From contig OZ250169.1 of the NCBI GenBank assembly GCA_965237955.1, positions 2,016,001 to 2,080,000 of the forward strand: a stretch of DNA of 64,000 bases, written 5' to 3'. The translations under genes were made by a program, and so were the position numbers. The notes beneath the pieces were generated by a model. The model was not told the origin of the DNA. It made no database searches and saw only the letters and a program-made list of their open reading frames with translations. Positions 5,054 through 64,000 of this stretch are shown piece after piece. Position 1 is the stretch's first letter. Each line of letters begins with the position of its first letter. This DNA comes from Candidatus Marinacidobacterales bacterium. GTDB lineage: Bacteria > Acidobacteriota > Vicinamibacteria > Marinacidobacterales > SMYC01.

Positions 5054-6285
<1,232 letters not shown>

Positions 6286-21561: not shown

Positions 21562-21655
21562 GTAGGGTCGAGGGCTGGCGCGGTGCTCCGTAGGCGCGGC
21601 CTATCTGTTTCTCCCCGTTTCCTGTGGGAGTGCCTCACTAGCCGCACCGTAAGTC
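21562..21655 (-). ncRNA. Group II intron 3' remnant (domain VI)
   Basis: Identical to 25086-25179; ends ...CCCTCGACCCTAC, followed by CGGGG. Confidence 0.85.
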
Positions 21656-22951: not shown

Positions 22952-23188
22952 TGTCTCTTCATACTTTTTGCCTAAGCCACGCGCCTTTTCCCGGCATATC
23001 TTGGTCAATTCGGCAACGGCAGGTATGAGCGGCTGCGTCTTATCCTTGTCATCGGGCACCGCCACTCTGATCGCACAAGATGTGCCAGCACCTAAGAAGA
23101 AAGCGATAGGCTTGTCATGCCGCGCAAGATGGTCCCTCAGGCTGGAGAGTATTTGTTGAGCGTCATGCGTTTGCTGTGTATTGTTCAT
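22952..23188 (-). pseudogene. SIR2-like domain protein, N-terminal fragment truncated by IS3
   Basis: IAFFLGAGTS (SIR2 GAGxS motif) followed by LIPAVAELT; ATGA overlap with the upstream nuclease. Confidence 0.75.
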
Positions 23189-24687
23189 CCGGGCCCCTCC
23201 GGCATCACGATCAAGCTGTCAAGAGCATCCCGCAGAACGCGCGTCGCACGGCAATCGTCTTCGCTATAATCAAGAATGCGCTGGCGAATCGTAGGGTCAC
23301 CCGTTTCTACCCACCTATGGAACCATTCGATTGAAGCCGCCCCCGAGGGATGTGTGTCGCGCCACGCAAAGACGAGATAGTTCGCCAGTGTTTTGATTGA
23401 GAAGTCTCGTGTTGGCCATTCTGTGGCCTTCAGCACCACATTAGAATAGAGGTCCACGGCCCGTACCGGGTCGAATAGCGCCTCCAGTTCGTCCTCCTTG
23501 CAGACGTCCGGATATTTCTCACGTAGCTTTCGATAGATGGTTCGCTCGTACTTCGAGTAGTAGTAGATCACGCAGGGCTGGCTTTCCTGCATGTAGCGCC
23601 AAGCCTCGGCAAAAGCCTGCTTCTCAGCCTCTGCGGTTGTTTGCTCGGCGAAGAAAGTGATAAACCGTTCTGTGTCGTTGTCGCCGCCCCGCCGTTCGAC
23701 AAAACCGTGCAGGTAACAGATGTTGCGCATGGGATCGACTTCGATGTCGAAGTACAGTTCCAGATCGGCGACCGGCAGCGTTACCGGTTCGCGGAGATAG
23801 GGCTTGGCCTTCTTCCCCGCCGTAATCAGCTTCGCTCGGGCGTGCAGCTTCTCTAGAGTCGCGAGACCTATGCCGGGGAAGATCGTTTTCTTGCCCGTGA
23901 CAAATTCTGCGGGGTAAGCCTCGGCCAGGTCCCGGATCGTTGCGATACGTTCCATCATCACGTCACGCTTCGACCTGCCCAACTCAGGAATCAGCGTCAG
24001 ATCGTTCGCATCGGTTAGGCGTGAGATACAAGCGCTGTACCAATGACAGAGCTTGCAAACCCCGCTATAGGCGGCAAGCGTCTCCGTGCTCTTGCCGACT
24101 ATCGCCTGGGCCTCGGCGAGGCAATCCTGATAATCCTCCCAGAGCGTGCGTGGATTCCGTTTCCCGTATGGTTTTATAAAGTCATAGATGATTTCTTGGC
24201 CATCAATATCCCAGATAAAGCCACGTTTCCCGGCAGAAAGGCCCTTACGTTCCAGGATGTCTGTGTAGAGCCCGAGTTGCACCGCGTAGTGCTTCTTGGG
24301 TTTCGACAGGTCACCCGAGCCTTCCTCCCCTGCGCCTGACTTGATATCTCCAGCGACATACCCGTCACCCTCTTGGCGCAGCAGGTCCGGGTCTCCAAGA
24401 AGGCCTTCGGCCTGCATACGTCCACTGTAGATTAGCGGTTCGCCGCCATGCATAGCCTCAAAAGTCAGCCGTTCCTTTTCATCACCTGCGTATATTGAGA
24501 GATCGGTAAGGGGCATTTCCAGCCTCTCAATAACCTCTTTCTCATAGATGTTACCCTTCTCCCAAAGCAATTGAACAAACGGGTTTGACTCATCGCGTTG
24601 CGCCTGGTCGGCGAAAAGGTCCATGGTCACGCGATGCGGACAAGAAACCAAATCGTAAAGCATTGAGGCGGTGACCGGCGCGGTCAT
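23185..24687 (-). CDS. TM0106-family RecB-like nuclease (PD-(D/E)xK plus RNase H-like domain)
   Basis: CPHR, GDPDLL...DIKS, QLGLY, CKLCHWYSAC, YFDIE, VDLY, SIKTLA, YSEDDCRAT. Confidence 0.85.
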   Translation of the reverse strand: MTAPVTASMLYDLVSCPHRVTMDLFADQAQRDESNPFVQLLWEKGNIYEKEVIERLEMPLTDLSIYAGDEKERLTFEAMHGGEPLIYSGRMQAEGLLGDPDLLRQEGDGYVAGDIKSGAGEEGSGDLSKPKKHYAVQLGLYTDILERKGLSAGKRGFIWDIDGQEIIYDFIKPYGKRNPRTLWEDYQDCLAEAQAIVGKSTETLAAYSGVCKLCHWYSACISRLTDANDLTLIPELGRSKRDVMMERIATIRDLAEAYPAEFVTGKKTIFPGIGLATLEKLHARAKLITAGKKAKPYLREPVTLPVADLELYFDIEVDPMRNICYLHGFVERRGGDNDTERFITFFAEQTTAEAEKQAFAEAWRYMQESQPCVIYYYSKYERTIYRKLREKYPDVCKEDELEALFDPVRAVDLYSNVVLKATEWPTRDFSIKTLANYLVFAWRDTHPSGAASIEWFHRWVETGDPTIRQRILDYSEDDCRATRVLRDALDSLIVMPEGPG

Positions 24688-25085
24688 GATTCAGCCCTCC
24701 TTGTACTGACGGAAATTGGTAGCAAGGTCGGCAAATGATTTTGGGCTGTATCTGTTGAAGCTCTCTTCGTCCACAAAGACGAAATCATAGGACACGTCCG
24801 ACTGTGCCCGATTGATCTCCTCGCACCATGTCTTAGGAACACCAGCGTCCGACAATCGAAGTCACCTCGGCGAAGCCGACGCTCCAGCTTTCTCGTCGCT
24901 TTAAGGAGCGCTCGGATGATGACCAAATCCTCCCCCTGAATTCCGTTGGTCGGCTAGCCTTTGTCGACGTTGTCGAACAATAGCCACAATGAATTCTTCA
25001 GTCCCAAGTTAAGTGTCAGCAGTTCCCGCCTTGCATAAAGGTATCGCCAATCGAATCAGTACTGCAATGCAGTTTTGCAATCCCG

Positions 25086-25985
25086 GTAGGGTCGAGGGCT
25101 GGCGCGGTGCTCCGTAGGCGCGGCCTATCTGTTTCTCCCCGTTTCCTGTGGGAGTGCCTCACTAGCCGCACCGTAAGTCCGTTTCCAGCCCCCGCCACAT
25201 CGCACGCAGCGTGCGGCTTTCCCGCACTACGCGCTCCTGCACACTTCCCGCGAAGGGTTATGTGACCTATCGAGCCGGGGCGTCTTTCGGCGAATCTACG
25301 AGATATCGAACTCGGTAATCTGTGAACAGTCCGACAGTCGCCTACATCCATCGCCTACTCCATCGCTTCCAGCCGAAACCTTGGCGCAAGAAGCGCCAAG
25401 ACTTCTCGGCCTTCGCCTTGACGTATATCCTTCATCTCAGCTCCTGCAGAGTGATGGGTGATTTTGTCATCTCACCCCTGCCTCGCTTGTTGACGAAGGA
25501 GTTGTGTGCAGCAGGGCCCCTTTGCTCCACGGGCGTTGCCCCGTTTCAACGCTACTACGGACCCAGCCGCCACCGTCTCGTCTTCAACCGTTTTCCCGGG
25601 GCCTCCGGTTATGCGGTCTACCTTGCTCCGTCGATTTCTCGACGGGACGAGGACGGCTTCTCCAGTTGCTTGGCATGTCCTTATCACCGTGCTGTCCCTA
25701 CCACCCCGCCAGAGGGATGTGCCTCATCAGATAGTCTGGCGACACATCCTGTTGCCTTCGTCCGACAGGAGAAAACTCGGCCTCTGGGGCTATTTTTTTG
25801 TCGGGGCCACCTATGGGTTCACTTGTGTTACGGCCCGGTGACTCGCTCACCATCCTCAAGATGGCTTTGTCAGTCAGCTTCATCCGTCTCGTTTCCTCCA
25901 CGAACGTGACTCAAGCTACGGGGCGCTAACTTTTACCCCGGTGGGACTCTTTCCCACTGAACATGCCAGCCTTCGCTGGACGCAC
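25086..25985 (-). ncRNA. Group II intron (900 nt) with internally deleted IEP; IIE/IIF-like domains V and VI
   Basis: 5' GTGCG at 25985; DV GAGCGCGTAGTGCGGGAAAGCCGCACGCTGCGTGCGA; 3' end CCCTAC; putative EBS1 UCCUGU (25765-25770) complements the 5' exon ACAGGA. Confidence 0.93.
25267..25470 (-). pseudogene. Remnant of the intron-encoded RT/maturase: N-terminus fused to C-terminus, RT core deleted
   Basis: MTKSPITLQELR*RIYVKAKAEKSWRF joined to LRQGFGWKRWSRRWM*ATVGLFTDYRVRY. Confidence 0.8.
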
Positions 25986-27315
25986 TCCTGTCCAAAAACA
26001 CAAACGAACTCAAGACTGGCGCGCCGGGCCGTTTCGATCGTCATCACCCCGTGGCGAGCCCCAGATCAGGAGCGTGTCGGAGGCGATGTCGGCGATTCGG
26101 GTTCTCCGCACGCGCAGGGAAAACACCGTCCAGCAACGGGATGCCACGCTCCCGGGCGGAGACCTGGGTCCAGGCCCGGGCCGCACCTGGACCAGAACGT
26201 GCTAGCCCGATACGCCGCAGTAACCCGGGCCTCGATTCTGGGCCTCTCGGGTGGCCTCTTTTCCGCCGCCGCACGGCCCGGTCAGCGGCCCGCCACCCTA
26301 TTTGGCGCAAACGTGGCACTCGAAAATCGGGATTAGAGACGAATGTCGAAAATGAGGCCCGTTCAGCCCTTCTAGCGCGTCTCTGGTGACACCTATACCT
26401 GCGAAACCCCGCCAACCGCGCGGAAAATCTCATCCGTCTCTGCAGTGCCACAATTGGGCAGACTGGGTGGCGGATGGTGCAGGTTGGAGCTATCCGGTCT
26501 CGGCAAAATGTGGTCCAGCTTTTGCCGGAAATCCTCAAACAGAAAAGTAAGTGGAGATTCAGGAGGTTTCGAGCTTCGCGCATTTCTTGAGTTTTTTGAT
26601 GCGTACGCAGGTTTGGCGAGAAGGCTGTTTTACGCGCTCTCGGGTTTCAACCGTGATGCCCACGTCGTTCTATCCGCTTCCCCTACAGTGATTTAACGGC
26701 TTCCGTCACGTGCTGGTCCCCGCACGCATCATCGACGGGTGGTCGTTCGAGCCGGAATTTTAATCAGCTTTTCTATACGGCAATTTCAAACTCCTGGACG
26801 CCTGAAAGAGGGCCGTGTCGTAAACCCTCCGGAGGCGGCTCCGACCGTTACTCATTGTCGCAAAAGGCTTTACGTCTCATCAGCGAATGTTCGTCGACGG
26901 GAACATCTTTCCGACTATCGCAGTCGGGAGGCTCGAGTGGAGCTTCCGATTCTTGGCTGGAAACGATCAGAAACAGAGCAAAACAGGCCATTAACGTGCA
27001 ATTTGGGGCGATTTTGGGGCTTATCGTGTCGTTTTTCCACTTAATCGCGCAGACAATGAGAAGACGCTCTACGCCTAGATCGCGCCTGAGGAGAGGACGA
27101 ATAGCGGAATTCGAATTGGCCAAACCTCGAATTCATCCAGTGGAGTTTTACGGAGGAAACGAAGATGACTCCGCAGACGGTCCAGTACAAGGAGCTATCC
27201 GAGTCTGGAAACCATGACAGGGAATTTGGGCCAGTTTGAGGCTGATTGGTGGAGGCCAGTGTCGGAGAGCAGCTTGCTGCTAACCGAGGCCATTCACGAA
27301 GTGGGCGCTGGAGGC
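25986..27315 (+). repeat. Type-B1 end plus repeat D, copy 2 (longest; lies downstream of the serine recombinase fragment)
   Basis: Colinear with 57098-57140 plus 59329-60572. Confidence 0.88.
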
Positions 27316-30089: not shown

Positions 30090-30306
30090 ACTTCCGGGTG
30101 CGAAGTTCACTGCCCGCAGCTCGCCCCGCAGCCGATTTGAGCCAGCCGTGCGCACCCCCGGTGGGCCTGTCGCTCGCCACCCGCAGCCCAGGGGTCGGAA
30201 GCCAGCCCTGCGGCGCGAAATACCCTCGATTCTGCGCGGATTCCAAGAGCGTCTAAGCTGCTGATTTGTGGTCTATTTCAAAAGGGCCGAGTTTTGGCAC
30301 AGGACG
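30090..30306 (+). repeat. Type-A2 end with long subterminal region (tip 30306)
   Basis: CTTCCGGGTGCGAAGTTC...CGGATTCCAAG.GCGTCTAAGCTGCTGATTTGTGG...CACAGGACG; also at 22035-22145, 36793-36850, 46385-46508, 50317-50501. Confidence 0.88.
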
Positions 30307-32901
30307 GGGTGAGCGACCCGCCGGAGGAGAACACGTGCTCATGGCTGGCCTCGGTGCTCAGCCGCAGCCGCCGCATGTCGACCGTCACCGCCCCGAACGT
30401 CTCCCCATCGCCCGCGACGTCGAGCCGCGCCAGCGCCCCCTCTCCCTTCAGCTTCACACTCGTCGTCCCGCGCGCCAGGAGCCGACCGCTGACGCCTACC
30501 GCTCCAGAGTCCAGCATCGCCTCGCTCGTCCGGGGATCCCCGGCGAGGTCGTCCACGATCCGGATTTCTCCCCAGGAGTGACCGACCGTTCCCCACACGT
30601 CCAGGTCGGACGACACCGACCAGCCCAGGTAGGGATGGACGCCCGTCAGCTGCAGCTCGTACGCGCCGCCCCCGGCGTCTCTGCCGCCCGCGTAGTAGTC
30701 GAACGAACCCCTCGACCGGGATACGGACAGCCCCGCCAGCACGTCGGAACCAAGCCGCACATCGGCCCCGAGGTGCACGCTGAACACCTCGCCGTTCCAA
30801 GCGACCACGCCGTCCTCGCCGCCGCCCGCCAGGTTGCGGTAGTCGCCGCAGCCCCACGCCGCGAAACGTCCCGCCCCGCCCTCTTCCTCCTTCGACGGCA
30901 TCAGGAACGACGAATCGCCGAGCGCCTGCTCCAGGGTCAGCGGCTCGGTGCCCGCCGCGGCCCACCCGTCGGAGGTCGGCGCGAGAGATAGCGACAGACG
31001 GCCAACCGGCTCCTCCGCCCTGCCCTGGGCGGCGTCCGAGAACGCCTGATCGCTGCGACACCTGACAGCGCTGAAAGCCAGCGTCCGCCCTATCTCCGGA
31101 AGGACGGTCTGGTTAACCAGCCCGATGCGGCGCTCCACGTCGTCGGTGATCGTTCCCACCCCTGTGTCGTCCGCCAACGTCGTCCCCACCGGGTCGCTCA
31201 ATTCCACCGTAAACTGCTCGGCGCCCTCCATCAGCTGGTCAATCAGCGTCGCCACGGCAACCGCCCGGGTCGTTTCCCCCGGCTCGAAGCGCAGCGTTCC
31301 CGATGTCGTCGTGTAGTCCGAGCCCGCAACCGCCGTCCCGTCGACCGTCTGGTACGACACCGTCACTGCGACGCCGCTCACGGCGCTCAACCGCATCACG
31401 AACTCCGCCGTACCCCCTTCGCCAACTGGCGGCGCGTCGTCGATCGCAAGCGTGGGCGGTTCGTCTTCGTCGGTGATCGTCCCCGCGCCGGTGTCGTCCG
31501 CCACCGTCGCCCACGACGGGGCGCTCAGCTCCACGGTGAAAGCTTCGGTCTCCTCCGGCGTGTCGTCGGTCGGCCGGAGCGTCTTCGTCGTGTCGCCCGG
31601 CTCGAAGCGCAGCGTTCCCGATGTCGTCGTGTAGTCCGAGCCCGCAACCGCCGTCCCGTCGACCGTGCGGTAAGCCACCGTCACCGGCTCGCCGCTCTCT
31701 CTGCGCAACGTCACCCTGAACTTGGCCGTGCGCCCTTCGGGCACCGGCGCGGCGTCGCCGATGGACAGGGTCGGGAGGCTGCGGCTCCCGCCGTCGTCGT
31801 CGCTGATCGTCCCCGTCCCGGTTCCGTCGGCCACCGTCGCCCCCGACGGGGCGCTCAACTCCACGGTGAAGGCTTCGGTCTCCTCCGGCGTGTCGTCGTC
31901 CACGGTCGGTACCCGGAGCGTCTTCGTTGTCTCCCCCGGCTCGAAACGCAGCGTCCCCGCCATCGCCGTGTAGTCCGAGCCTGCAACCGCCGTTCCGTCC
32001 TTCGTCTTGTACGATACGGTCACCACGTTCTCGCTCGCCGCGCTCAACGTCACCCGGAACGTGGCCGTGTCTCCCTCTACCACTGCGGCGTCGCCGACGG
32101 ACAGGGTCGGGAGGCTACCGCCCCCGCCGTCGTCGTTATCCCTGATCGTTCCCTCCCCGGTGTGGTCGTCCAGCGTGGCCCCGTCCGGGTTGCGCAGGGT
32201 CACCATGAAGCGTTCGTCCGACTCCTGGGCGTCGTCATCCACCGTCGACACCGAGATCGTCTTCGTTGGTTGCCCCGCTGTGAAAGTCAGCGTCCCCGAT
32301 GTCTCTGTGTAGTCCGAGCCCGCCTTGGCCGTCCCGTCCGCCGTCTCGAAGTTCACCGTCACCGGCTCGGTGCTGGCCGGTGTCAACGTCACGACGAACT
32401 CGGCCGTACCCCCTTCGGCCACCGCCGCGTCCGCGATGGACAGGGTGGGCAGGCTGCTGCCCCGGTCATCGTCGTCGTCGATGACCCGCACCGTCACCGG
32501 GCTCTCACCCTTCACCGGGCAATCGGCATTCTCATCCCAAACGTCGTGGGTGAAGGTCACCGACCCATCCAATCCATCTTCGTCCTGAAGCGCCGTTACC
32601 CTGACCTCCCGCCAAGTGTCCCAGTTGTCCCGATTGAACTCCCAGCCGACCGACGGCACCCAACTGATTCCTCTATAGTGGCCGGCGTCGCGTATCGAGC
32701 CGTTGACGCGCAGCACGACCCACCATCCGTCGGCGAGGGGTGGCTCAGTCAGTCTCAGGCGGTAGGTGAGAGATTCGCCCTCGTCGATGCTCAGCGTGGT
32801 CGGCGACACCTCCACTCCCCAGGTGGTCTGGGCGTGTACCCGCGGCGCCGCGATGCCGGACAGCAGCGCCGACAGCGTGACGGCGAAGGCGACTAGACGC
32901 T
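30307..32901 (-). pseudogene. Calx-beta repeat adhesin / autotransporter; beta-barrel truncated at type-A tip, 5' end clipped by IS5
   Basis: Signal-like AVTLSALLSGIAAPRVHA; four repeats (V.EG..A.F.V.L...VTV.Y.T.DGTA.AGSDY...SGTL.F..G.T); C-terminal WGCGDY..HLGAD..HPYLGW barrel strands. Confidence 0.88.
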
Positions 32902-33051
32902 GCCTTGGTGCACAACTCCGATAGAGGCCGAGAGCTCGCTTGGCCCCGACTCCCATCATCCGATCATCTCGCTATCAGGCATCCCGAGCGCCGTCATGGT
33001 GTTGAGAATCTTGCACCCGATCCTTGCCTCGACTCTCTGTGCCGCCAACCC
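32902..33051 (-). mobile_element. IS5/IS903 transposase C-terminus and right IR
   Basis: LAAQRVEARIGCKILNTMTALGMPDSEMIG*; IR GCCTTGGTGCACAACTC identical to that at ~582-598; cut at B tip 33052. Confidence 0.8.
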
Positions 33052-42389: not shown

Positions 42390-42434
42390 GTAGAGTCGAG
42401 AGCTGGCGCGGTGCTCTGTAGGCGCGGCCTATCT
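42390..42434 (-). ncRNA. Diverged group II intron 3' remnant (domain VI end)
   Basis: GTAGAGTCGAGAGCTGGCGCGGTGCTCTGTAGGCGCGGCCTATCT matches 25086-25130 with 3 changes. Confidence 0.8.
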
Positions 42435-48395: not shown

Positions 48396-49844
48396 CGTCC
48401 TGTGCCAAAACTCGGCCCTTTTGAAATAGGCCATAAATCAGCAACTTAGTGTCTGTGTTTGCGCCGGGGCCAAGGGCCGTAGGCTTTACAATCGTCTGGC
48501 CCGAGGGTGTTATCTTCAGGTCCATGATGACGTACCACGTGCAATTCCTACTGCTCGTTCTAGCTGGCTGGGTCAACCGCCAGCAGCAGGATGTGATCGA
48601 CTACCTGCAAGAGGAGAACCGTGTGCTCCGAGCCGGGCTTCGGGGCAAGCGTCTCAGTCTCTCGGACGACGAGCGGCGCAGGCTCGCGGTCAAGGCCCAG
48701 GCTTTGGGCCGCGAGGCGCTGGCCCAGATTGCGTCCGTTGCCACACCCGCTACGCTTCTGCGCTGGTACCGCCACCTCATCGCAGCCAACTACGATGGCA
48801 GCAAGAACCGGAGTCCAGGCCGACCTCCGACGGCGAAGGACATCCGTGAGCTCATTGTGCGCGTGGCGCGGGAGAACCCGACGTGGGGATATACGCGCCT
48901 GCGAGGCGCACTCAAGAACCTAGGACATGAACTCGGACGCAACACTATCAAGAGGATCCTCGCCGAGCACGGTATCGCTCCTGCGCCGGAGCGGGGCAGG
49001 AGCATGTCGTGGAGCACCTTCATCAAGGCTCATTGGGGTGCCATCGCTGCGACAGACCTGTTCACCGTCGAGGTTGTGAACCCGTTCGGGCTCGTCCGCT
49101 ACCATGTCCTGTTTGTCATCGATATCGCCACTCGCTGCGTGTGCATCGGTGGGATAACGTCGGACCCCAACGGGGAGTGGATGAAGCAGGTTGCAAGAAA
49201 CCTCACTGACATGTGGGATGGTTTCCTCCTTGGCAAGCGATACCTCATCCACGACCGGGACCCGCTATTCACCGAGGCGGTACGTGGGCTGTTGAGAGAT
49301 TCAGGCGTGAAGCCCCTTCGCCTTCCCGCTAATAGTCCGAATCTGAACGCATATGCGGAAAGATTCGTTCTCTCCATACGTCGAGAGTGTCTCGACCGCT
49401 TCGTACCTCTCAGTGAGCGACACCTGCGCACAGCGGTAACCGAATACGTAGTGCACTATCACACAGAACGGAACCACCACTCGGCAACGAGCTCTGATGG
49501 AGGTCTCGGCAACGAGCTCCTCACACCTCTGCCGGCAAGCGCGAATGACGCTGGCCCCATCGTGTCGCGAGAGCGACTTGTGGGCATTCTCAACTACTAC
49601 TGCCGTGCCGCGTAGATGGTCGCCGGCGACGGTAGCCCCTCGGCGGGCTCGACCGGCGTAGCGTGGAAACCGCTTCAGGAACACGCTTCGATATTCGCTC
49701 TCGACTAGGTGGTCATCTGCATGGTGACGACCCGCCCGCCCAAGACGATTGTAAAGCCCACGGCCCTTGGCCCGGTCGCAAACACAGGCACTAAGTTGCT
49801 GATTTATGGCCTATTTCAAAAGGGCCGAGTTTTGGCACAGGACG
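48396..49844 (+). mobile_element. rve/IS481-like element bounded by ~100-bp inverted type-A1 ends
   Basis: 48396-48497 is the reverse complement of 49743-49844; flanks ACATCC / CCATTC are not a duplication. Confidence 0.8.
48524..49615 (+). CDS. Integrase-core (rve) DDE transposase, the only full-length copy
   Basis: [14 protein letters not shown]; ATDLFTVE (D), IHDRD (D), NAYAERFV (E); small in-frame insertion after ERNH. Confidence 0.9.
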
Positions 49845-50712: not shown

Positions 50713-52236
50713 TCACGGGCGCGGTCCGGAGCGTCGCTCGTTCCCCTGTGAACCCTGGCGCAAACTGGCGAGCACCTTGCGAAAACTATTCAAGCCAGCC
50801 GCAAGGGTTTCGATGATCTCCTCGGCGAGGTCGTCGGGCTCCGGAAGGTTGTCCAGGTCCGTCAGGCTTTTGTCCTTGAGCCAGAAGATGTCGAGACTGG
50901 TCTTGTCGCGCGCTCTGAGCTCCTCGTAGCTGTAGCTGCGCCAACGGCCTTCCGGTGCGTCCTTTTCGTCCCAGGTCGCCTTGCGCTTGTGCCGGTTCTG
51001 TGGGTTGTAGCAGTGGACGAAGTCCGCGAGATCGTCAAGGCGCATGGGCTTCTTCTTTAGCGTGTGGTGGATGTTGGTACGGTAGTCGTAGTACCAAACT
51101 TGCTTCGTCCAGGGATTAGGGCTGGCTTCGCGGTTATCGAAGAAAATCATATTGGCCTTGACCCCCTGCGAGTAGAACACGCCGGTCGGAAGGCGCAGGA
51201 TGGTGTGCAGGTCGGTGTTGTCCAGCAACTTCTTGCGGATCGTCTCACCGGCGCCGCCTTCAAACAGCACGTTGTCTGGCACTACTACGGCAGCGCGGCC
51301 CGTGGTCTTGAGCATCGTACGAATGTGCTGCACGAAATTGAGCTGTTTGTTCGAGGTGGTCGCCCAGAAGTCCTGCCGGTTGTAGGTCAGGTCGTCCTTT
51401 TCCTGTTCGCCTTCTTCGTTCGTGAAGCTCATGGAACTCTTCTTGCCGAAGGGCGGGTTCGCGAGCACATAGTCAAAGCGCTTGCCAGCATCGGCCACAA
51501 GCGAGTCATTCGGCGATATGGGCGCGCCTCCCTCGATCTCACCGATGTTGTGCAAGAACATGTTCATCAGGCACAGGCGGCGCGTGTTGGCGACGATCTC
51601 GTTGCCACGAAACGCCTCGTGCTTCAGGAACGCCTTCTGTTTCTTGTCGAGCTTGAAGTTGTCCGAATTGGTAATGAAGTCGTAGGCGGCCAGGAAGAAA
51701 CCGCCCGTGCCACAGGCAGGGTCGGCGATGAGCATGCCCGGTTCAGGCTGTACACATTCGACCATGGCACGGATGAGGGCTCTCGGCGTGAAATACTGGC
51801 CCGCGCCCGACTTGGTGTCTTCGGCATTCCTCTCCAGCAGGTTCTCATAGATGTCGCCCTTGATGTCGGCACCCATGGTCACCCACTCGGTATCGTCGAT
51901 CATGTCGATCAAACGATAGAGCTTAGCCGGGTCCTGGATCTTGTTTTGAGCCTTGGTGAAGATCTGCCCCAGCATGCCCGTCTTGGTGCCGAGCTCGTGA
52001 AGCAGAGCGATGTAGTGGCCTTCGAGTTCTGAGCCCCTCTTCGATTTCAGGCTTTGCCAGTTGTATTCGGCGGGGATGCCGACATTGCGATTGTAAGGCG
52101 GTTTGGCATACTCGTCGGCCATCTTGAGGAAGATCAGATAGGTGAGCTGCTCCAGGTAGTCGCCATAGCCGACCCCGTCATCGCGCAGGGTAGTACAGAA
52201 GCTCCAGACTTTGGAAATTATGGGGGCGGTGTTCAT
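50713..52236 (-). CDS. hsdM: Type I R-M N6-adenine methyltransferase subunit
   Basis: GAGQYFTPR, DPACGTGGF, ANPPF, VVPDNVLF. Confidence 0.95.
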   Translation of the reverse strand: MNTAPIISKVWSFCTTLRDDGVGYGDYLEQLTYLIFLKMADEYAKPPYNRNVGIPAEYNWQSLKSKRGSELEGHYIALLHELGTKTGMLGQIFTKAQNKIQDPAKLYRLIDMIDDTEWVTMGADIKGDIYENLLERNAEDTKSGAGQYFTPRALIRAMVECVQPEPGMLIADPACGTGGFFLAAYDFITNSDNFKLDKKQKAFLKHEAFRGNEIVANTRRLCLMNMFLHNIGEIEGGAPISPNDSLVADAGKRFDYVLANPPFGKKSSMSFTNEEGEQEKDDLTYNRQDFWATTSNKQLNFVQHIRTMLKTTGRAAVVVPDNVLFEGGAGETIRKKLLDNTDLHTILRLPTGVFYSQGVKANMIFFDNREASPNPWTKQVWYYDYRTNIHHTLKKKPMRLDDLADFVHCYNPQNRHKRKATWDEKDAPEGRWRSYSYEELRARDKTSLDIFWLKDKSLTDLDNLPEPDDLAEEIIETLAAGLNSFRKVLASLRQGSQGNERRSGPRP

Positions 52237-53810
52237 ACGACGGTCCTCATTTTTCTGGTTTTCTCGGTGGTCTCACCGTTCTTTCTGGCCTGATCCTTAA
52301 CCGCCTTGATCCTGTCCAGAAGAACCGATGCGGGCTCGTCGCTGAGGTCCTGCGCGACGAGTTGACCGGCGAAGGCTTTCTTCAGAACCGATTGGCGAAG
52401 TGCATCTGCCTTCTGCAGTTCCTGACTGATACCCGCTTCCGTTTCATCAACGAGCGACAGCGTCTTCTCAAGAATGCTGGCGACTTCGCGCTGTTCTTCA
52501 ATCGAACAGCACGGAAATGGGTAGTTTGAGAGTTTGGTGCCGTTGATGTTTGACTGGTTGACTCCGTCAGTTTTGACACTGTTGCCGTACTTCCGGGCAA
52601 CGTGCGAGTTGAGGAACAGGTTTACGTATTGGCTGTCAGCAATCGAGCGGATGTGGTTCACACGAATGAGGTATCCTGCGAAGATGGCTCGGCGTTCGCC
52701 CCTGTAAATGGCAGTTTTGCCAACTAGTTCAGGACTGTTAGTACGGTTGAAGAGGACGTCGCCATCGTGAAGCAGATATTCCGAGATCTCATCATCATCT
52801 GAGGTATAGACAAGGTCCGCCCAATCAAACTTCGCATTCTGGATATTTCCCATGCGAAGTACTGGTGCTGTGCCCGCCTTCGCAGACTTTGCAGCTGTCC
52901 CGTATTTCACTCCGCAAGTCAGCGACCCCAGCTTTCGCCATACCCACAATTCTGGCAACTGCGGTAGTTTCGCGATCACATCGTGGGGAACATCAGCTAT
53001 TTCTAGCAGCTTCTTCGGCCTCGGAGGCTTCTTGCCAGCCTTACCGCTTTCTTCCCACATTTTGACAGCGGTCTTCCACTCCTGGAGTTGCAGCTCGTAG
53101 CGTGCCTCCCGCTCCTGTTTGATGCGAGCGAGCAATTGCTCAGGCGTCTCAAGCTTGTCTTTGTTCTCTGAGCGCCATTGGGCCGTTAGCTTGCCTTCGA
53201 AGGCGTGTTTGAGCACAGCCTGGCGGTAGGTTGCCAATTGTGTGCGCGCTATCTTCAGGCTCTCGATGCCCTTGTCCAGTGCGGAAAACAGTTCCTCGAT
53301 CTTGGTCACAATGCGGTGTTGCATGACTGTTGGAGCGAGAGGTATCGGAAGGCTGCCGAAAGCTCTACCAGATAGCTCCAAAAACGTCGTGCCACTTGCG
53401 CGCTTGCGCGCATACTCTCGTGACGCTATCAAGTAGTAGTAGACGAACTCGTTCGAGATGCCAGGAGCGGGAACAAGGCTCTTGAAGCCTTGATTTGTTG
53501 CTAACTGCTCCGAGCTGATGACTACGTAGCCGATTGGCGCGCGCGAGGAAAAATGCACGCTGCCTGCAGGCATCACCTTTGCTGAGCTGTTCGCTAGGCC
53601 GACCCGGGAGATGCTCTTTGTGCCATTCTTGATTGTCTTGGCCGAGTAGCCCGTCAAGTCGGCTGGTGAAATCCAATTGATCTCATTTGACCAATAGGTT
53701 GGTTCCTTGGTTGACGGCGTTCCACCCGCAACGATTTCCCCGATTTTCGACAGGCTCGTCCACGCCCAGTTATCGGGGACTGTCCATCGCAATTCTGGCT
53801 CGTAACTCAT
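52233..53810 (-). CDS. hsdS: Type I R-M specificity subunit
   Basis: Two TRDs; PDNWAW / LPELWVW; RQAVLKHAFEGKLT and RQSVLKKAFAGQL; EPASVLLDRI. Confidence 0.93.
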   Translation of the reverse strand: MSYEPELRWTVPDNWAWTSLSKIGEIVAGGTPSTKEPTYWSNEINWISPADLTGYSAKTIKNGTKSISRVGLANSSAKVMPAGSVHFSSRAPIGYVVISSEQLATNQGFKSLVPAPGISNEFVYYYLIASREYARKRASGTTFLELSGRAFGSLPIPLAPTVMQHRIVTKIEELFSALDKGIESLKIARTQLATYRQAVLKHAFEGKLTAQWRSENKDKLETPEQLLARIKQEREARYELQLQEWKTAVKMWEESGKAGKKPPRPKKLLEIADVPHDVIAKLPQLPELWVWRKLGSLTCGVKYGTAAKSAKAGTAPVLRMGNIQNAKFDWADLVYTSDDDEISEYLLHDGDVLFNRTNSPELVGKTAIYRGERRAIFAGYLIRVNHIRSIADSQYVNLFLNSHVARKYGNSVKTDGVNQSNINGTKLSNYPFPCCSIEEQREVASILEKTLSLVDETEAGISQELQKADALRQSVLKKAFAGQLVAQDLSDEPASVLLDRIKAVKDQARKNGETTEKTRKMRTVV

Positions 53811-56599
53811 CCCGCTAACGCTTCATTCAATTCGTCAATCACGCTATCCATCCGGTTCCCGAAGAGCTTGTACATTTGGCCCATGCCGCCCTTGCTATCG
53901 AACGGAGCCATGTCAAGGTCGTCGCGGTCCAGATGAAAAGAACTGATGACGTGGTCGCGAATCATGCGCAGCCATTCCATCTGCTCCTCATTGAATTTCT
54001 GTCCGCGACCACTATGTCGCGTCATGATCCAGTTCTGGAAGTTGCGCCGCACGGTTTCTGAATAGGGCGAGACCTTCGCATCAATGCCACAGACGCAGCG
54101 GATCAGCGCCACGAGCGCCGTTAGTTCAGTGGCGGGCTGCTGCCCCTTGTAGTCATCGAGCAGGGCGTAGGCCTGCCAGACGCGTAAGGGGGCTAGGCGG
54201 GGCTTGTCAGCTCTAAGCTTGTCGAAGATTTTGCGGATCATCGCGTAGCTCAGCTCACTGCGCCGATGCGGCTGGGCGTAGAAGATGGTCAGGGCTTCGA
54301 TCTCGTCGCGGTTAGCTTCCAGATATTGCTGGAAGTCCTGTGCCATCGCCTCTGCATTTTCCTTGGCGTCGCCCTCCCATTCGGCCCGGAGCACGGTGTC
54401 GAGGCTCTCATGATCGATGGTCTGTTCCTTGTCGCGGCGGATGGAGTCGATCAACTCAATCAGCTCACCGTTGAAGACGGTTGCCGCATCACTGACCAGC
54501 TCGTCCTGAGCTTTTTCGCGTGCGGCCAGTGCCGGCTCAGCGCCGTCTGCGATCGGCTCGATCACGCGGGCCCTGGCCTCAACGCGATCGGGATCGATGG
54601 CGGCCAGCAGATTGCCGATGATCTCGGTGAGCTCTATGCCGCTCGCCTTCTCCCGGATGCGCTCCTGCTCCTGGTGGTCGAGCTGCCGGTTGAGGCGGGC
54701 GAGGCGGCCGGCGAGTGAGCTCACCGTGTCTTCGTCACGAGCACCCATCATCACGCCCATGGCCAGATCCTTGAGCGGGACGGAAGGCTTTGTGATGAGT
54801 GGCTGGCTGGCGGTCTTGAGCGATTTCGTCACACCGACGGCGTCGACAATCACATAGTGCGTCTTGCCGCAGGCGACTGAGGGCGAAACCTTCTTGAGGT
54901 CGTCATGGTCGAGTGTGCGGGTGCCGCGGCCTTTCATCTGTTCGAAATAGTTGCGGCTCCTCACGTCGCGCATGAAGAGCAGGCATTCGAGCGGCTTGAC
55001 GTCGGTACCCGTGGCGATCATATCCACGGTTACAGCGATACGCGGGTAGTAGTCGTTTCGGAACTGGGCGAGGACGGATTTCGGATCTTCTTCGACCTTG
55101 TAGGTGATCTTCTGGCAGAACTCGTTGCGTTCAGCAAATTCCTCGCGCACGGTCTGGATGATGTCGTCGGCGTGGCTGTCGGTTTTGGCAAAAACAAGCG
55201 TCTTTGGGACTTCGCCGCGGCCGGGGAATATCTCCGACAGCTTGTCGCGAAAGGTGCGGACGACAGTGCGGATCTGATCAGGGTTGACGATGTCTCTGTC
55301 GAGTTGCCGGGCGGCATAGGTGACGTCCTCATCCTGGATCTCCCAGCGCTTTCGGCGTGTCAGGCGCTCGCGCTTCTCGACCTTCTGGTCCTCCTTGAGT
55401 TGGCCGCCATGCTTGGTCTTCTCCGTATCGATGACATAAATTTCGTTGCCGACATTGACGCCGTCCGCGACGGCTTGCTCATGGGCATACTCGCTGACGA
55501 CGTTCTTCTTGAAGAACCCATAAGTGCGGTTGTCCGGCGTGGCGGTGAGGCCGATGAGATAGGCGTCGAAATATTCAAGGACCTGGCGCCAGAGGTTGTA
55601 AATTGAGCGGTGGCATTCGTCGATGATGATGAAGTCAAAAAACTCAAGTGGAATCTTGCCGTTATAGACGACCGGCATCGGTTGTTTGGGCTGCACCATC
55701 TCCGCCGGGTTGATCTGCTCCACGGCTTCATCCAACTCCTGGTCCTTCAACAGCGAGTACATACGCTGGATGGTGCTGATGCAGACCTGGCTGTCCTTGG
55801 CAACGAAGGAGGATTTCAGCCGCTGCACGTTGTACAGCTCCGTAAATTTACGGTTGTCGTCACTAGGCACGTAGGCCGTAAATTCCTGCTCGGCCTGTTC
55901 ACCGAGATTCCTGGTGTCCACCAAGAACAGGATCCGTTTGGCGTCAGCGTGCTTCAGCAGACGATAGATCGATGTGATGGCGGCGTATGTCTTGCCGGAC
56001 CCGGTCGCCATCTGGATGAGGGCCCGCTGGCGGTCGTCCCGCAGCGACTCTTCGAGCCCTTCAATCGCTGTGATCTGGCACGCCCTGAGGCCTGAGGGGT
56101 TGAGGCTGGGCATGGTGCGTAGCCGTGCGCGCAGCGGTGCGGGTTGCGTGAACCACCCGGCCAGCGTTTCAGGGCGGTGGAAATTAAAGACCTCGCGCGA
56201 GCGGGGCTTCGGGTCGCGGGTATCGGTGAAGCGCGTCACGACGCCCGTGCTCTCTTAGATGAAGGGAAGCGGCTCCTTGTTGTTTAGCCATTTCAGCTTT
56301 GCGGCCGCGTAGCCAGCAGACTGATCTTCAACCGTCGTGATCTTCTGGCCCCAGTCCTCGGGTTTTGCCTCGATGACGCCGACCGGGTTCTTGTCGATGA
56401 ACAGAACGTAGTCGGCGGGACCGACATCCGTCTGGTATTCGCGGATGGCGATGCCGAAGCCAGCGCTGAAGTCTATCTCGTTTTTCGACTGCACCTTCCA
56501 GCCAGCCTCGTCCAGCAGCTGGTCGATGGTGTCGCGCGCCTTTTGTTCGGGGGTGCGGTTCTTGTCAGCCATTGCTTCGGTCATTTCATATTGAGCCAT
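53807..56599 (-). pseudogene. hsdR: Type I R-M restriction subunit with an in-frame premature TAA at 56255-56257
   Basis: PADY..IEAK, LPFI*ESTG, MATGSGKT, DECH, LTATP, QMKGRG; the two ORFs are in the same frame. Confidence 0.92.
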
Positions 56600-60969: not shown

Positions 60970-63900
60970 CTATCGCGGCTGTCTCCAATCGACGCTCAGA
61001 GGCTCCTTCGCTGGGAAGAGCTCCGCGTTGAGCCCGGCCGCCACCCGCTCCCGGAACCGCGCCACCTCCTCCGCGAAGACCCGGTTCGTGCGCTCGAGCG
61101 CTCGCTTCAGGTCCTCTTCGGCCGCCCGCAGGTGTAGCCGCTCGGCCTCGGTCGGCGCCTCGCGTGCGGAGCTGAGCGTGCCGTGGATGTCACCGAAGAG
61201 ATTGCCGAGCTGCGGCAGCACCTCGTCCGACCAGCTCACCTGCCCCTGAACCCCGTGTCCAGTGAACAGTTCCTCCACGCTCGTGAGCGCCTTTTTGAGG
61301 TCGTGGCCGGCCGATGCCAGCGCCTTGGCGGTGCTGTCGGTCGCCCCGCGGTTGGCTTCGACTTGCTCCACCGCGCGGTCGACGGCGCGCTTCGCGTCTC
61401 GTAGACGATCGACCGCTTCGGCGGCGACTTCCTGACGCTGGCCCACGGTCATGATGAAGTCCAGCCTCTCACGCTGCACCGCCATCGGGACCTGGAAGCG
61501 CGGATCCTCCCGGACCTCGACCGCCGCGCTCGCTTCCTGGCCCTCGAACTTCACCCGGACGGTGTAACGGCCGGGCAGCACCTCCGGCCCCCGTACGAGC
61601 GACGGGCTGGCTGCGTCTTCCTCCTGAACACGGGGCTGGCGGAACGCGTCGCGTCGCAGGTTCCACGCGGTCCGGTTGACGCCCGGCTTGGCCGGAGCCT
61701 CGAACGTGCGAATCGTGGCACCAGCCTCGTCAAGGACTTCGAAGGTCACCTTGGCGGTGTCTCTTACCGCGGACTCGGCGGGAATGGAGTAGGTCACGAG
61801 CGCCCCGTAGGGCCGATTCTCCCCAATGAACATCCCGTCCCCCGTGACCTGCATCCCATCCGGCGGCGCCACCTGATAGCGAATGGCCACCGGGACCTCG
61901 AACAAGTGCAGCGACCTGTTTGCGATCGCGGGATCGCGCGCCAGCGCGCGCAGCGGCCCCACATCGTCCAGGATGTACACCGAGCGGCCGTGTGTCGCGA
62001 TCACCAGGTCGTGATCCCTCGGATGCACGACGAGGGCCCGCGTGGGAGCCCGCGGGAGTCCGTGACGCCACAGATGCCACTTCTGGCCTCCGTTCAGCGA
62101 CACGTACATTCCGTGCTCGGTGCCCAGGAACAGCAAATTCGCCTCGACGGGATCCTGCTCGATCACATGAACGAAGTTGAATGGCTCGATGTCCGCGGTG
62201 ACGAGGCTGGTCCAGGTGGTGCCGTAATCCATGGTCTTGAAGACGTACGGCGTGTTGTCGCCCCGACGGTGATCGTCGAAGGTCACGAACGCCGTGCCGC
62301 CGTCGAACTTGGACGCCTCGATGTGCGGCACCCAGCTGTTCGGGCGCACGCCGCGGATCCGCTCCACCACGTTGAGCCAGGTGCGGCCGCCGTCGCGCGT
62401 CAGCTGCACGTTGCCGTCGTCGGTGCCGACCCAGAGCACCCCGCGCTCGACCGGCGACGGCGCGATGGTGAGGATGGTGGTGTGATTCTCCGCCCCGGTG
62501 TCATCGAGCGTGAGCCCGCCGGACTCGTCCTGCATCTGCTTCTCAGGGTCGTTGGTGGTGAGGTCTGGGCTGATGAGGGTCCACGTCCTTCCCATGTCCG
62601 TGCTGCGATGGACGAACTGGCTCCCGATGTAGAGCGCTTGGTCGTGGGGGTCGATCGCCATCCCCGCGTTCCAGCTGAACCGGAGCTCGATCGCCTCGGG
62701 ATGGGCCGGCACGATGGACTTGCGCTCGCCGGTTTGAAGATCGGACTGGAGGATGCGGCCGCCTTGCCTCGTGGCGTAGACGTAGCGCGGGTCGTTGGGC
62801 TCGGCGAGCACGGCGAAGCCATCACCGAATCCGATGTTCTTCCAGTCGTAGAAGCGGATGCCGCCGTTGTGCCACACGGAGCTCGGCCCGTGCCACATGT
62901 GGTTGTCCTGGAGCCCACCCATGATGTTGAACGGCGTCGCCAGGTCCACGTTGACGTGGTAGAACTGGCCGAGCGGCAGGTTCTCGATGAAGCGCCACGA
63001 GGCGCCGCGATCGCGCGAGAGGTAGACCCCGCCGTCGTTGCCGTCGATCAGGAACTTGCCGTCGGGGCTCACCCAGAACGCGTGGTGATCCCCGTGCACC
63101 CGCCCCAAGCGGAGGAGCGGCCGAAAGAGCTTGCCGCCGTCCTCTGAGCGATCAATCGTCCCGTGCAAGTTATACACGCGGTCCTCGTTGGTGGGGTCGA
63201 CCCGCACCTGCGCGTAGTAGAACGGCCGCCCGGCGATCCTTTCAGCGACATCGCTTCCGTGAACGTGGAAGGCCGTGAACGAGTCGTTCACGACCTTCCA
63301 CGTGTCGCCACGGTCGTGGGAGCGCAGCATTACGCTGCGCTTGGCCTCGACCACGGCATAAACCACCTGGGGTCCCCCGCGCGAAGTCGAGCCCCATGCG
63401 GCCGAGCTCGCCCTCGGGGAGGCCTTCGTTGGGACTCAGCCGCTTCCAGCTCTCGCCGCCGTCGTACGTGACGTGGAGCCCGCTCCCCGCTCCACCCGAG
63501 CGGAAAAACCACGGCCAGCGCCGGTGATCCCACATGGCGGCGATGAGGTGATTGGGGCTCGCGGGATCCATGACGAGGTCGCCGGCACCGGTGGTCTCGT
63601 TCACGTAGAGCACCTTGTCCCAGCTCTTGCCGCCGTCGGTGGTCTTGTACACGCCCCGGTGCGGGCTCTCCTTCCAGGTGTTGCCGAGGGCGCCGACGTA
63701 GGCAAGCTCCGGATTGCTCGGGTGCAACACGATCGCGTCGATCGCGCCGCTCGACTCGAGCCCTACGTGTTGCCAGCTCTTGCCGCCGTCCAGCGACTTG
63801 TACACCCCGGTGCCGACCCCGGCCGAGTTGCGGCGGTTGCGCTCGCCGGTGCCGATCCAGACGAGCTCGGGCGCCGCCTGGTAGATGGCGATCGCCCCCA

Positions 63901-64000
63901 CCGAGGACGCGGGCAGGCTGTCGGTGAGCGGCGTCCAGGTCACGCCGCCGGAGGTGGACTTCCATAGACCGCCGGTGGCCGCGCCCACGTAGATGATGTT
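60970..64000 (-). CDS. BNR/Asp-box (VPS10/sortilin-like) glycosyl hydrolase; 5' end outside the window, frameshift near 63370
   Basis: Many S/TxDxGxTW boxes; RPFYY, HGDHH, GNDGG, GGLQDN, RFSWNA, ISPDLT, VGTDDG, IATHGR. Confidence 0.9.

Follow-up and report, generated by a model that had tools for sequence, protein, structure and literature searches.

Homing of a group II intron into the terminal repeats of an insertion sequence (IS) is already published, and the strategy is known. In Sinorhizobium meliloti GR4, both inverted repeats of ISRm17 serve as homing sites for the intron RmInt2 (PMC4615759, PMC5894124), which has been proposed to limit the spread of the IS (PMC4615759). The intron described here lies in a 64,000-nt stretch of DNA (the window) from a Candidatus Marinacidobacterales genome. 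It resembles RmInt2, as those reports describe it, in being an IIB-like intron of endonuclease-minus type whose likely homing site is a multi-copy IS terminal inverted repeat, which RmInt2 reads through EBS1 to EBS3, and copies of its lineage also sit in IS terminal inverted repeats. However, RmInt2 is a class D, protein-coding intron reported as seven copies in one strain and one IS, whereas the window intron has no open reading frame (ORF), is 98–99% identical across four genera and belongs to a clade whose EBS1 fits at least 19 end sequences at a fixed -2 position. Furthermore, RmInt2 homing was shown by experiment, whereas that of the window intron is deduced from sequence.

Other described introns share single traits with it. 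Class E/F introns have an IIB-like RNA, a 5-nt domain V loop, small forms without an ORF and proteins with reverse transcriptase (RT) and maturase domains but no endonuclease (PMC3753933, PMC3552965); the accessible sections of these two reports mention no habit of targeting transposon ends. Introns that hide in mobile elements, and ORF-less copies with helpers acting in trans, are known as well (PMC7306698, PMC4424553, PMC2504315). Like the window intron, known ORF-less introns carry an internal deletion that keeps the first and last ORF codons, and their near-identical copies occupy several sites. They nearly always co-occur with a related intron in the genome (PMC4424553), unlike the window intron, for which no such helper was found in its genome. 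The attC- and terminator-targeting IIC introns are lineages tied to one class of repeated site (PMC4424553, PMC7923331), yet in these introns a hairpin replaces IBS2 and IBS1 is short, whereas the window intron has a full 6-bp EBS1 and an EBS2. A literature search, mostly of papers outside subscription, listed no account of a clade following transposon tips in a constant register.

We consider it quite probable that the window carries a non-autonomous intron that entered its site by base-paired retrohoming with a borrowed RT, two bases inside the tips of one type of transposon end (B-type). The occupied site is likely the outcome of ordinary retrohoming and not of a new kind of system. The relatives of the intron extend the one-strain case of RmInt2 and ISRm17 to the level of a lineage, with 19 naturally occurring guide-target pairs that form a series in one register. 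The series lends itself to tests of natural group II retargeting and of the restraint of transposon spread (723 ends in this genome).

The intron and its guide sequences

The initial annotation proposed a group II intron with the 5' exon TTTTTG-G-ACAGGA and the 3' exon CG, and we confirmed it at that position (Table 1). Read from 25985 to 25086, it starts with GTGCG and ends with CCCTAC, in agreement with the group II boundary rule (5' GUGYG, 3' AY), and matches the Rfam model group-II-D1D4-4 with 116 bits (cut-off 49). Its fold has a z-score of -6.3 against shuffled sequences (n = 20) and contains six domains, with the domain V triad and the bulged A of domain VI. The folding of domains I to VI suggested earlier gave domains V and VI in the expected form and EBS1 in a hairpin loop. 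The terminal loop of domain V is GAAAG in the centroid structure, and the minimum-energy fold also has a 5-nt loop, in another register. A 5-nt loop is among the class E/F features described in PMC3753933. The protein of a coding relative (L036) is 71% identical to Bradyrhizobium ltrA proteins. We take the window intron to belong, probably, to class E. A search for a sigma-70 promoter near the intron found none, and the ligated-exon junction was absent from the contigs of four RNA runs, a weak test, as the material searched was contigs only and these span the intron in parts. Near-identical stretches of the intron also occur in a run labelled sponge metagenome.

Table 1. Coordinates of the intron, its occupied end and associated features in the window
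Feature	Position	Strand	Remarks
ORF-less group II intron	25086..25985	-	900 nt; IIB-like; domains I–VI present
Extended domain VI	25086..25200	-	bulged branch A at 25092 (seven bases from intron end)
Domain V	25201..25236	-	AGC triad, 2-nt bulge, 5-nt terminal loop; centroid structure
Remnant of the intron-encoded protein gene	25266..25470	-	~27 N-terminal and 38 C-terminal codons, with stop codons
Id3 hairpin with EBS1 (stem GUUU/GGAC)	25760..25776	-	pairs kept in 86–90 of 90 distinct homologous segments
EBS1, UCCUGU (TCCTGT)	25765..25770	-	lineage majority is UCGUGU
EBS2, CAAAAA	25795..25800	-	predicted partner: T-tract of the end
IBS1, ACAGGA	25986..25991	-	the six 5' exon bases next to the intron, within the B1 end
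IBS2, TTTTTG (predicted from sequence)	25993..25998	-	
Terminal CG of the B1 end	25084..25085	+	now 900 bp from the repeat
B1-type terminal repeat body	25986..26036	+	separated from its tip; no transposase gene behind it
3' stub of the intron	21562..21655	-	intron positions 807–900, then CG
3' stub of the intron	42390..42434	-	intron positions 856–900; truncated on the 5' side at the tip of a different B end
Full-length rve element with A-type ends	48396..49844	+	ORF 48449–49615; relative of the target, not the target

The conserved hairpin that presents EBS1 sits inside a second helix, GCC/GGC. The initial annotation had drawn TCCTGT in a CCGA...TCGG hairpin; its place in a loop holds, but two of the four pairs of that hairpin are kept in only 22 and 48 of the 90 segments. 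The CCGA/UCGG pairing was therefore rejected as the conserved Id3 stem, being unconserved, though the isolated 71-nt segment can fold in this way (z -0.2). The proposed EBS1/IBS1 pairing is supported, with compensatory changes across relatives of the covarying kind that identifies group II introns. For EBS2/IBS2, a subgroup IIB feature, CAAAAA matches TTTTTG and, by inspection, the region changes with the target class: all 21 end-targeting relatives with a readable EBS2 region are rich in A there, and relatives that target domain V of other introns differ. A candidate EBS3/IBS3 position is paired in 70 of 78 relatives and has an A-C mismatch in the window copy and its lineage.

No intact RT/maturase ORF remains in domain IV. 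The two parts of the gene remnant are joined by a deletion near 25385–25391, within domain IV, and their codons are 76–81% identical to the ends of the L036 protein. L036 and a second relative (L037) are 2010 nt long and 85% identical to the window intron in the 5' part; L036 encodes an unbroken 435-residue protein with RVT_1 and GIIM domains only, ending 30 residues past GIIM, without an endonuclease. Comparison with these longer introns indicates that the window intron is the product of an internal deletion of ~1.1 kb. Another ORF-less derivative (L038, G013:C1:2087237-2088002), 88% identical, has a different and larger deletion, so the gene was apparently lost more than once. The EBS1 of L038 is matched to its own ACAGTA end.

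The occupied end and its transposon family

The source genome contains 723 ends in two patterns, 512 A-type and 211 B-type, which flank paralogous rve transposases. These ends cluster in islands where several further end types also occur, one such array spanning 17450–57150 of the window, with type I restriction-modification genes (M, S and R) at 50713–56239 (minus strand) in its midst. The intron had been described as interrupting an rve element. The end does belong to an rve family; the occupied copy itself lacks a transposase gene. The full-length rve element in the window is a relative of the target: its own ends are A-type, and B ends are those of a paralogue whose transposase is ~50–54% identical to the A-type enzyme in the window. 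The statement that the occupied end is the only B copy with ACAGGA is true of the 10 B matches in the window but not genome-wide, where 42 of 211 B ends have it; ACACGA is the majority form, as noted earlier (143 of 211).

The A-type transposase in the window is closest to IS481, yet falls below the cut-off of that model (94.9 vs 224 bits, NF033577) and below that of the IS3 model (80 bits, cut-off 160), and the family passes the cut-off of no NCBIfam IS model. The family shares with IS481, IS3 and IS1202 (PMC10045372) the rve DDE domain and, in some of its ends, the start TGT, whereas its A and B ends begin CGT and no target duplication was found. IS481 elements duplicate 2–15 bp of their target, mostly 6 (PMC10045372). 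Among 26 element-sized A-end pairs, a duplication of 3–35 nt was found in none and one of 2 nt in a single pair, a signal that later rearrangement could erase. By these comparisons, the target element is an unclassified, IS481/IS3-like transposon. A search for paired empty sites found none, and in no case did the flanks on the two sides map to the same site. The lack of duplications together with flanks that never meet at one empty site suggests that transposition by this family deletes or rearranges adjacent DNA.

The earlier claim that the intron lies 2 nt from the tip is borne out by the flanks of the ends: across 214 of them, identity to an end-free copy jumps from 0.37 at the G of the terminal CG to 0.87 at the next base. 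This jump also argues against reading CG as a 2-bp target duplication, with the intron exactly at the tip, and CG occurs in only 42 of 195 end-free copies. By analogy with other DDE elements, it is reasonable to suppose that the intron disables the occupied transposon end: with its terminal dinucleotide now 900 bp away from the transposase-binding repeat, cleavage would fail and the end would be inactive, and RNA splicing could not repair the DNA.

Targets of the lineage and of its protein-coding relatives

Two further full copies of the intron in the source genome are 99% identical to the window copy, and all three lie in B ends, between ACA[C/G]GA and CG. The window copy carries the EBS1 UCCUGU and sits at ACAGGA; the other two carry UCGUGU and sit at ACACGA. 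The UCGUGU form accounts for nearly all depth at 25768 in four sequencing runs. Matches to the intron occur in 14 of the 41 genomes searched, with nine full copies (at least 98% identical) in five genomes of four genera and two families, and a phylum-wide DNA search recovered the 5' end of the intron in 7 of 400 other genomes. The source genome also has a relative 72–75% identical, in two pieces (G000:C1:6210729-6212203, minus strand), at a site unrelated to these ends.

The 5' junctions of the lineage support the proposal that multi-copy transposon termini are its target. B-type ends (20 with ACACGA, three with ACAGGA) account for 23 of the 25 junctions, from seven genomes and five genera, a count that leaves out five distant rows and in which some junctions share an exon and are not all independent. 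Of the other two, one lies in a B-like end and has an EBS1 altered accordingly, and the other is at an unrelated site. All six EBS1 positions are paired in 14 of 17 readable junctions, and two UCCUGU copies sit at ACACGA. Within this lineage, the exons, which the initial annotation proposed to align, are mostly end sites and not unrelated sites. They span many B1 subtypes as well as B2 ends, which also occur without the intron. The more specific suggestion that ACAGGA-CG tips of A-type ends are the homing site did not survive: none of the 25 junctions is in an A end, even though the genome has 512 A ends and only 211 B ends, and the usual guide is UCGUGU for ACACGA, with UCCUGU in the minority. 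The T-tract of A ends lies one base further out, yet a relative with that spacing is used elsewhere (L082). A group of introns 81–89% identical to the window intron, which includes protein-coding copies, has all five of its junctions in a further end type (D), before CA in L037 and before CT in L036, and its EBS1 is changed to match in all three readable junctions.

To extend the comparison, we used the L036 protein as query and took the best 80 genome and 79 metagenome loci, each of ~600 candidates, of which 113 relatives had a mapped 5' boundary and enough exon. By a rule of our own, 41 of these target domain V of other group II introns, 47 other sites and 25 end-like sites; inspection by eye removed two of the latter, leaving 23. 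The domain V targets share one position, which makes nested introns (L067–L225), and several other relatives lie inside transposase genes. In the 23 end-like relatives, which have 19 distinct IBS1 hexamers, EBS1 and IBS1 pair at 136 of 138 positions; shuffling gave a mean of 81, and none of 10,000 shuffles reached 136. Relatives with other targets pair equally well, so what stands out is the target and not the pairing.

A tree of 68 of the 113 rows, with six long branches and many non-end rows excluded and the group defined once a first tree was in view, places 19 end-like rows in a single clade of 21 rows (SH-aLRT 98), L036 among them. This suggests that the lineage likely keeps its position while changing its guide. 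The remaining four end-like rows form a separate clade, and two origins of end-targeting were not accepted since one clade is not rejected (AU p 0.066). The 3' exons start with CA or CG in 15 of 18 cases in the clade and a sister row versus 25 of 71 in other target classes. Independently of our rule, 8 of the 23 end-like loci have a transposase gene of the family no more than 603 nt from the junction. Furthermore, in five of ten genomes tested, the exon matches the repeats that flank intron-free rve transposase genes, followed by CA or CG. No matching end was found in the other five; four of these have only 1–5 loci, and L057, with seven, gave no convincing match. Named hosts include Acidobacteriota, Gemmatimonadota and Pseudomonadota.

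Base pairing could account for this constancy of position. The A-rich EBS2 would pair with the T-tract common to the ends, and EBS3 would read the conserved C of the CA or CG tip. These two pairings would set the -2 register and leave EBS1 free to change along with the six variable bases that lie between T-tract and tip. In class E/F introns, EBS2 is dispensable for splicing and a homing role has been suggested for it (PMC3753933), a role that fits the present case. Alternatively, the intron protein could recognise the transposon end itself, as a DNA structure or as an intermediate opened by the transposase, with EBS1 adapting afterwards; if true, such recognition would add a further targeting mode to those that use homing sites, terminators and attC sites. 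The -2 register is indeed constant over 19 target hexamers, CA and CG tips and several phyla, and a second, unrelated intron sits exactly at the tip of related ends at three or more of its four junctions. But EBS1 pairing is near-perfect, and just as good in relatives with other targets; EBS2 and the C of the tip can set the register by known means; close relatives have moved to other targets, domain V among them; and the commoner A ends are unused even by the UCCUGU variant. We therefore regard recognition of the end by the protein as improbable and retain base-paired targeting. A broader and rather speculative proposal, with odds clearly against it, is that the multi-phylum clade is a specialised killer of the ends of one widespread, unclassified DDE transposon family. 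Its -2 register would fall at the cleavage dinucleotide, EBS1 would be re-guided from end to end, possibly with protein help from the transposase-bound end, and MITE-like ORF-less copies would have crossed genera and be now without a helper.

Mobility, recombination and intron fragments

The borrowed protein of our preferred reading is not apparent in the source genome, where the search found no matching intron protein and reverse transcriptases only 29–34% identical. Of the 41 genomes, a single one gave an unbroken match, and the intron copy encoding it targets D ends. The protein may have been supplied in trans by a full-length relative since lost from the genome; alternatively, homing may have taken place in another host and the copies arrived inside mobile arrays. 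An ORF-less intron in a genome without a matching protein bears on the range over which helper proteins are shared.

An intron-free allele of the locus also exists. In one public contig (run X3, depth 4.7), which has ~19 nt of B-side sequence, 25085 is followed by TCG and then by 25989, giving an ACACGA end. The window copy and a second full copy in the genome have 2286 bp of 3' flank in common and are identical past intron position 303, but differ at six positions before it and in the 5' flank. This combination suggests that the window copy is likely a recombinant of two intron copies. An insertion in an ACACGA end would have supplied its 3' half, and a variant located at an ACAGGA end would have supplied the 5' half. 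A gene for a TM0106-family RecB-like nuclease (23185–24687, minus strand) adjoins the intron and is duplicated along with its 3' flank (G000, ~3.0 Mb).

The shared 3' flank with differing 5' sides, a sign of recombination, is also what would be expected if the ORF-less copies were dead passengers, old insertions shuffled by recombination and array transposition that cross genera as cargo. The absence of the helper protein from most genomes with many copies, the EBS3 mismatch and the fragmentary state of the majority of copies are consistent with such an origin. Set against it are the 5' exons spread over many B1 subtypes and B2 ends that are also found intron-free, the 24 distinct CG-starting 3' flanks in one genome and the empty allele. 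Moreover, it covers present mobility only and leaves the retargeted protein-coding relatives unexplained. Overall, we judge it a possible but less probable account than retrohoming with a borrowed RT. The intron may still be mobile, but the missing protein, the EBS3 mismatch, the lack of ligated exons and the lack of a strand bias of the RmInt2 kind, towards the lagging-strand template, speak against it. For the bias, 15 of 37 junctions have the replication-strand orientation seen in 78 of 194 B ends (p = 1.0), in a genome with weak GC skew and heavy rearrangement.

Most intron copies in the genomes are fragments, with 3' junctions exceeding 5' junctions by 40 to 4 in the source genome and by 85 to 24 in 19 family genomes. 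In the source genome, 24 of 27 distinct 3'-junction flanks start with CG, and their profile is nearer to the flanks of B ends than to those of A ends. This excess of 3' stubs could arise if the 3' end of the intron plus the displaced CG acted as a new transposon end moved by the transposase, and the stub flanks do fit the target profile of the enzyme. However, the flanks are equally explained by the original insertions, the tip of a different end truncates the 5' side of ~23 of 35 stubs (25 by rule, two of them false by eye), and the same excess (13 to 4) is seen in a second intron that carries no tip at its 3' terminus. Movement of such a hybrid end is hence very unlikely. As a weak check on the proposed disabling of the occupied end, a search for B ends that had moved off the intron with its first two bases as their tip gave none among 211 besides three intron junctions. 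Intron positions 793–796, 828–831, 856 and 878, in domain VI, are repeatedly cut by different end types and look like target hot spots of the transposase.

The second, unrelated group II intron encodes a protein and is ~2005 nt long (G000:C1:373223-375227, minus strand), with other 5' junctions at 466168, 881615 and 3640597. At three of these four junctions, its first base directly follows the terminal CG of a C-type end belonging to the same transposon family; the fourth also follows CG, preceded by a T-tract. Its 13 3' junctions have varied flanks. Elsewhere in the window, an IS3-family element (5054–6285, plus strand) contains an ALIL frameshift pseudoknot at 5332–5445, and minus-strand genes at 30278–32959 and 60970–63988 encode a Calx-beta repeat protein with an autotransporter-like end and BNR/sortilin-repeat proteins.
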